Positions 7,096 to 7,114 of a stretch of 64,000 nucleotides of DNA are shown here, piece after piece. Source of the DNA: Escherichia coli (GTDB lineage: Bacteria > Pseudomonadota > Gammaproteobacteria > Enterobacterales > Enterobacteriaceae). The notes beneath the pieces were generated by a model, which was given only the letters and a program-made list of their open reading frames with translations, was not told the DNA's origin and made no database searches. The stretch lies in NCBI RefSeq assembly GCF_044324785.1, contig NZ_CP172127.1. The stretch is one strand, 5' to 3'. Every line of letters starts with the position of its first letter. The first letter of the stretch is position 1. The position numbers and the translations under genes were made by a program.

Positions 7096-7114
7096 ATTCC
7101 GAGTCCGGGCACCA
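7096..7114 (+). repeat. attR: 19-bp direct repeat of the tRNA-Phe 3' end (ATTCCGAGTCCGGGCACCA)
   Basis: Exact 19/19 match to the 3' end of E. coli tRNA-Phe including CCA; the 5' part of the tRNA is absent, so this is a partial copy marking the island boundary. Confidence 0.8.

Follow-up and report, generated by a model that had tools for sequence, protein, structure and literature searches.

An exact 19-nt copy of the tRNA-Phe 3′ end upstream of cadC, probable distal junction of a pheU island in Escherichia coli

RESULTS

Genes and features of the locus

The window (the whole 64,000-nt stretch analysed) comes from contig NZ_CP172127.1 of Escherichia coli assembly GCF_044324785.1. Its first 7 kb hold a series of genes of the accessory, mobile-element kind (GTPase, DUF932, antirestriction, RadC, DUF987, CbeA/CbtA, DUF4942 and ParDE), of which ParD and ParE are the last before a 19-nt piece of tRNA-Phe; beyond this lie a hairpin, an integrase remnant and cadC (Table 1). 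Pfam assignments of the island proteins were taken from identical or related products in the look-ups of other loci, and most proteins encoded in 1-7114 recur as exact copies in islands at many E. coli loci. The CbtA reading frame can be extended back to a GTG at 4369, giving 156 aa. It overlaps the next ORF by 38 nt, and no exact record of the 141-aa protein of that ORF was found in a collection of 15 billion proteins; it is likened by position to a 140-aa ORF at locus L008 that overlaps CbtA by the same 38 nt and matches PF25638 (DUF5983_N).

Table 1. Features around the tRNA-Phe fragment, in window coordinates; L and H numbers are loci in other genomes
Feature	Coordinates	Strand	Basis
YeeP-like GTPase	20..904	+	exact protein in many islands; PF01926
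DUF932 protein	1090..1908	+	exact protein in L003, L004 and other loci; product there matches PF06067
Antirestriction protein	2000..2485	+	exact protein matches PF03230
RadC/JAB protein	2501..2977	+	exact protein in L004, L006; product there matches PF04002
DUF987 protein (YeeT-like)	3040..3261	+	exact protein match; product matches PF06174
214-aa protein, 'antitoxin of toxin-antitoxin stability system' in H1	3276..3920	+	ORF list, H1 annotation, exact-match check
CbeA/YeeU antitoxin	3970..4338	+	exact protein in L004, L008; product there matches PF06154
CbtA/YeeV toxin, 136-aa form	4429..4839	+	exact protein in L006, L010; product there matches PF06755
141-aa ORF, placed like a DUF5983_N-type gene of L008	4802..5227	+	ORF list; position only
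DUF4942 protein	5324..6190	+	exact protein matches PF13708; adjoins ParDE at cadC or kps elsewhere
ParD antitoxin (6262-6525) and ParE toxin (6522-6848)	6262..6848	+	exact in L011-L016; products there match PF03693, PF05016
Island right arm (P arm)	6924..7095	+	91.5% identical to CFT073 GI-pheV attR arm; kept beside core at pheV and pheU
Crossover core (O), exact tRNA-Phe (pheU/pheV) 3′ end including CCA	7096..7114	+	unique exact match; K-12 pheU; published 19-bp attR class
Left arm (P′ arm) from an earlier intP4-type island; fixed in E. coli 3′ of pheU	7115..7247	+	CFT073 homology; also after pheU in K-12, H31, L020
Terminator-like hairpin, 11-12 bp stem and T run	7124..7149	+	terminator scan and repeat search
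P4-type integrase remnant, internally deleted and frameshifted (K-12 yjdQ pseudogene)	7271..7468	+	tblastn; PGAP; K-12 annotation
cadC, first backbone gene rightward	7731..9269	+	ORF list, K-12 alignment, look-up product PF00486/PF18500

The module at 20-6190 presumably draws on the same families as the yee, ykf and yfj modules of the K-12 elements CP4-44, CP4-6 and CP4-57, with which we take it to share the YeeP-like GTPase, DUF932, antirestriction, RadC, YeeT, CbeA/CbtA and YeeW-like families; the likeness is one of gene family, and the CP4 elements occupy other integration sites.

Two further differences from K-12 lie well to the right. At 24737-24758 melB is absent: yjdF abuts the end of melA with hardly a gap, and ~1.66 kb of K-12 sequence is missing; the same junction occurs in 1,264 of 5,426 complete genomes and is thus a common polymorphism. 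At 53756-53938 about 180 bp replace the alsRBACEK operon and part of rpiB (~6.85 kb of K-12), and a comparable junction is likewise common (1,565/5,426).

A 3′ fragment of tRNA-Phe

A first-pass annotation of this DNA, made from the sequence alone, had described an exact 19-bp copy of the tRNA-Phe 3′ end some 600 bp upstream of cadC, with the rest of the tRNA missing, and all of this was borne out. In a scan of the 64,000-nt window, ATTCCGAGTCCGGGCACCA was found once, at 7096-7114 (+) with 0 mismatches, and no second site appeared even when up to 3 mismatches were allowed; at that tolerance 0.01 matches are expected per shuffled window. The 19-mer is identical to the 3′ end, with its CCA, of pheU as annotated in K-12 MG1655, where it occupies the low-coordinate end of the tRNA. 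The cadC ATG at 7731 stands 617 bp past it, the same spacing as in K-12. ARAGORN reported 0 tRNA genes in the whole 64-kb window, hence no intact tRNA-Phe across 7096-7114. The last 19 nt alone represent the 76-nt tRNA-Phe, whose cloverleaf is incomplete, and this is not a functional tRNA-Phe gene. The bases 5′ of the 19-mer (CAGTTTC) have only GTT in common with the continuation of the tRNA (GGTTCG).

The window was aligned jointly with the dicD-pheU-cadC region of K-12 and with E. coli AHS8C65RI. The comparison with the K-12 pheU-cadC interval, which the first-pass annotation had proposed as a check, placed the start of collinearity exactly at 7096, from where it runs to cadC at 97-98% identity; identity is 97% over 7096-7731, a segment that spans the final 19 nt of pheU, the hairpin and the integrase remnant and ends at the cadC start. 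Leftward of 7096 the window is unrelated to K-12 save for the GTT, which lies among the last six bases before the 19-mer; where K-12 has the complete tRNA, the window has island DNA. Since K-12 homology breaks at the start of the 19-mer, the remainder of the tRNA has been replaced by other DNA exactly at that point. What is left is a partial direct repeat of the tRNA 3′ end, exact over 19 nt, at the distal boundary of an island, with backbone homology setting in from the repeat.

We looked for a sharp GC step at the junction and found none; GC falls gradually from ~55% in the yee module to ~41% around cadC, so the boundary is not definable by composition. A search for arm-type repeats around the core returned short, weak ones only, with no convincing set of integrase-binding repeats. 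A tRNA T-loop-like 10-mer, TTCGATTCCG, occurs at 6922-6931 within the island arm, 174 bp 5′ of the 19-mer. Its match in tRNA-Phe starts a little 5′ of the 19-mer region and runs into it. AHS8C65RI has the 10-mer as well, and it could be a degenerate older core or a putative binding site.

Mosaic structure of the island end

The stretch 1-6093 shares up to 98% identity with islands located elsewhere on the chromosome (L006), and the overlapping stretch 5034-7114 shares 98.9% with the DUF4942-ParDE ends of islands at pheV and pheU (L011-L016). Over the full 7.1 kb (1-7114), identity to complete E. coli genomes does not exceed ~94%. This mosaic structure indicates that homologous recombination has reshaped the island end since integration. 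The DUF4942-ParDE end adjoins kps, at the pheV site, in L011, and cadC, at the pheU site, in L013, L015 and L016, all in other assemblies. Immediately before the core, 45 nt are shared without a difference by L011-L015, loci that include both kps/pheV and cadC/pheU sites, and the break always falls at the same base. The right arm of ~170 bp is conserved relative to CFT073 although the cargo genes that precede it differ.

The right flank is an older island scar

The terminator hairpin that the first-pass annotation had placed after the 19-mer was recovered (Table 1), and it is identical after pheU in K-12 and after pheV in CFT073. The homology is not limited to the hairpin: positions 7096-7247 are 92.1% identical to the CFT073 sequence between the intact pheV and the intP4 integrase. 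The hairpin belongs to the old island arm and directly follows the tRNA in strains with an empty site; here, lying 3′ of parE, it may terminate read-through into the region upstream of cadC.

Behind the hairpin, tblastn with the 421-aa integrase of L012 aligned residues 1-11 to 7278-7310, residues 359-391 to 7312-7396 and residues 397-420 to 7397-7468, so that the first 11 codons run straight into the final ~60, with frameshifts. The three separated segments identify the remnant as an internally deleted, frameshifted integrase. PGAP calls the homologous stretch an incomplete integrase pseudogene in H1, H31 and MS1685, and K-12 annotates the pseudogene yjdQ between pheU and cadC. In L012 and in CFT073, the same core and arm lead into an intact integrase of this intP4 type, 421 aa long, which in CFT073 lies beside pheV; the L012 protein is 97% identical to that of CFT073. 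The second element retains an intact integrase in both L012 and L014. The native sequence downstream of pheV is different, starting ctaattcttaagaacccgccc in the CFT073 attR and in L011.

The first-pass annotation had read the DNA to the right of the hairpin as ordinary cadC upstream sequence. It is K-12-like and has K-12 spacing; judged by these alignments, the pheU-cadC interval that K-12 carries as 'backbone' is what remains of an older CFT073-type intP4 island, namely its left arm, now fixed, and its deleted integrase (yjdQ). The junction does not have the P-O-B′ order of a simple island/backbone attR, its right flank being 92% identical to the CFT073 attL arm and then continuing into a deleted integrase. 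With an old island arm and an integrase remnant as its right flank, it reads instead as a tandem-element (attP-like) junction, composed of the island right arm (P), the core (O), and the left arm (P′) with deleted integrase of the older intP4-type island, as found between tandem elements. The earlier description of the 19-mer as an attR-type partial duplication is therefore apt for the exact copy, the breakpoint and the attR class to which the repeat belongs, but strictly not for the kind of junction.

Empty and occupied sites in close relatives

Positions 7115-20000 are ordinary E. coli backbone, 99.2% identical to the best complete RefSeq genome. HCP5S3_I2 (H31), the closest complete genome, has an empty site, with the order dicD, tRNA-Phe, integrase remnant, cadC. 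Over 10-12 kb of backbone, two assemblies with the exact CadC protein share 99.99% identity with the window. In one of them, GCA_020389665.1 (L020), the figure of 99.99% applies to the 11.9 kb immediately to the right of the 19-nt core, in which 1 base differs; its site is also empty, the intact tRNA-Phe being joined directly to the same downstream sequence. The clone-mate GCA_053151395.1 (L022) carries a different island at pheU, without ParDE, whose repeat at 9360-9385 of that locus is TTCGATTCCGAGTCCGG-CACCA, of the 23-bp imperfect class. With L020 empty and L022 holding another island, the pheU site is polymorphic within the clone. The assignment of 1-7114 to an island, made in the first-pass annotation, agrees with both the island-type genes found there and the empty sites of L020 and H31; K-12 is empty too.

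The same junction in other genomes

A 501-bp junction probe was covered to at least 80% in 168 of the 5,426 complete E. coli genomes (~3%), the best match being MS1685 (99.8% over 501 bp). The exact 65-nt junction pattern had no match among species-representative genomes.

Two of the genomes with this junction were followed to the far end of the island, where intact tRNA-Phe and an integrase gene lie 77-84 kb to the left. In AHS8C65RI (NZ_CP125885) the order is dicD, tRNA-Phe (4482488-4482563), integrase (4482740-4483924), ~77 kb of island, ParDE, the 19-mer, the integrase remnant and cadC. MS1685 (NZ_CM194837) has the same order over ~84 kb. The pheU-proximal integrase, of 394 aa, is intact in AHS8C65RI and frameshifted in MS1685. 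Both islands share with the window the cadC junction and the DUF4942-ParD-ParE end, and differ from it in the rest of the end module (~92-94% identical), in carrying DUF905 and an HTH gene, and in the CbtA/DUF5983 region.

The 394-aa integrase shares only 42-43% identity with the intP4 type, the left arm beside it differs too, and a tblastn search with it found no match in the window's remnant beside the core. This unlikeness marks the AHS8C65RI and MS1685 islands as composites. After IS remnants they continue with TPR, phosphoethanolamine-transferase-like and OMP genes; in L012, likewise annotated genes stand after the intP4 integrase. Going by these two islands, the integrase that made the window's junction may no longer be present; and at this genome's own far end, outside the window, an intact pheU and an integrase would be expected.

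Both islands also encode the full set of DNA-phosphorothioation defence genes (dndBCDE / dptFGH), together with a cluster for sugar utilisation that comprises a LacI-family regulator, an alpha-galactosidase, an MFS transporter, a GH32 hydrolase and a porin, at 19142-35013 of the AHS8C65RI locus (L018) and 26799-42670 of the MS1685 locus (L034).

DISCUSSION

Relation to described tRNA-Phe islands

The feature is of an already described, textbook kind, the junction of a tRNA-targeted island. The attR repeats of 41 GI-pheV islands have been tabulated (PLoS Genet 2024, PMC11537424); most are either a 23-bp imperfect repeat, TTCGATTCCGAGTCCGG-CACCA, found in 536, APEC O1, O104:H4 and others, or a 19-bp repeat, TTTCATTCCGATTCCGGGCACCA, found with intP4.1 in CFT073, Nissle 1917, UMN026 and ST131 (PMC11537424). 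The same study names pheU as a further hotspot, links GI-pheV to CP4-44 and reports that mismatches between the repeats lower excision frequency (PMC11537424).

The window belongs with the 19-bp class. Its sequence, TTTCATTCCGAGTCCGGGCACCA, set against the published TTTCATTCCGATTCCGGGCACCA, has the same 23-nt string, TTTC followed by the 19 nt of the tRNA-Phe 3′ end; the arm to the left, over 6924-7122, is homologous to the CFT073 GI-pheV attR arm (91.5% identity); and a yee-type module stands at the island end. There are also differences. GI-pheV islands of this class lie at pheV beside kps, whereas the window's island lies at pheU beside cadC; the CFT073-type attR has a G-to-T mismatch, while the window's repeat is perfect (19/19); the last cargo of CFT073 is DUF6088/AbiEii, that of the window ParDE; and to the right of the repeat the window has the old island arm rather than native backbone. 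The 23-bp class likewise places a partial tRNA-Phe 3′ end at the distal end of the island, and in L022 it does so at the same pheU site. The window has no repeat of that class, which is set apart by the extent of the repeat (TTCG, 1-nt deletion) and by the island arm.

Origin of the 19-nt fragment

The 19-mer is very probably the core at the integrase-distal (attR-side) end of an island that a tyrosine integrase inserted into the 3′ end of pheU by site-specific recombination. The exact breakpoint recurs at two tRNA-Phe loci, a near-identical clone-mate has no island at the site, and the analogous genomes show the full architecture; the acting integrase and its type we infer. On this reading the integrase would have recombined the island attP with the last 19 nt of pheU, restoring an intact tRNA-Phe beside the integrase at the far end, outside the window, and leaving the 19-nt duplicate at 7096-7114. 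The DNA at 1-7114 would then be the right-hand module of the island, in which the yee-type genes are followed by DUF4942, ParDE and the right arm.

That so short a sequence should resemble tRNA-Phe by chance has nothing but its shortness in its favour; the expectation of ~0.01 per window with 3 mismatches allowed, and the position of the 19-mer exactly where the K-12 pheU 3′ end sits relative to cadC, make the odds of it negligible, and we reject it. The fragment might instead be the stump of a truncated pheU from which a deletion, an IS-mediated event or an illegitimate one removed the 5′ 57 nt, leaving no intact pheU at the far end and pheV to supply tRNA-Phe. The far end of the island does lie beyond the window, and related islands show IS-mediated remodelling, e.g. 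the IS1 and IS3 remnants of AHS8C65RI. A random deletion would not, however, be expected to match to the base a published attR class and the arm and core junctions at pheV and pheU in unrelated genomes, and tRNA-Phe is intact in both of the analogous genomes examined to the far end (AHS8C65RI and MS1685). We consider such a truncation very improbable.

Less remote, though still unlikely, is that the 19-mer is a genuine but old attR, an inherited scar that reached this chromosome when the island and its flanks were imported from another E. coli by homologous recombination. The mosaic of segments 98-99% identical to different islands would fit such an import, as would the near-identical junctions (up to 99.8%) in unrelated strains and the uneven identity of the core region to its best complete genomes, 99.2% at 7115-20000 versus 100% at the yjdF-melA junction in swine strains. 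Against it, the empty-site clone-mate differs by 1 base in the 11.9 kb to the right of the core, and that side shows no trace of imported flanking DNA, which is better explained by site-specific insertion or excision at a precise point. Homologous import would in any case leave the identity of the 19-mer unchanged.

Mobility and significance

Because mismatched repeats lower excision (PMC11537424), the perfect 19/19 repeat of the window's island would at least be compatible with excision. That the island still moves in this clone is unlikely; in favour are this repeat, the complete attP-like junction with the resident remnant, and clone-mates (~1 SNP/12 kb) that are empty or carry a different island.

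For annotation, the junction fixes a precise right boundary (7114/7115) for the pheU island of this genome. The scar nature of the K-12 DNA between pheU and cadC is a point of some didactic value: since this 'backbone' is an older island scar, new pheU islands form tandem-type junctions here. The site is variably occupied within one clone, and if the island is indeed still mobile, pheU would be a live exchange site rather than a fossil scar, with gain, excision and replacement of islands all taking place within a single clone.
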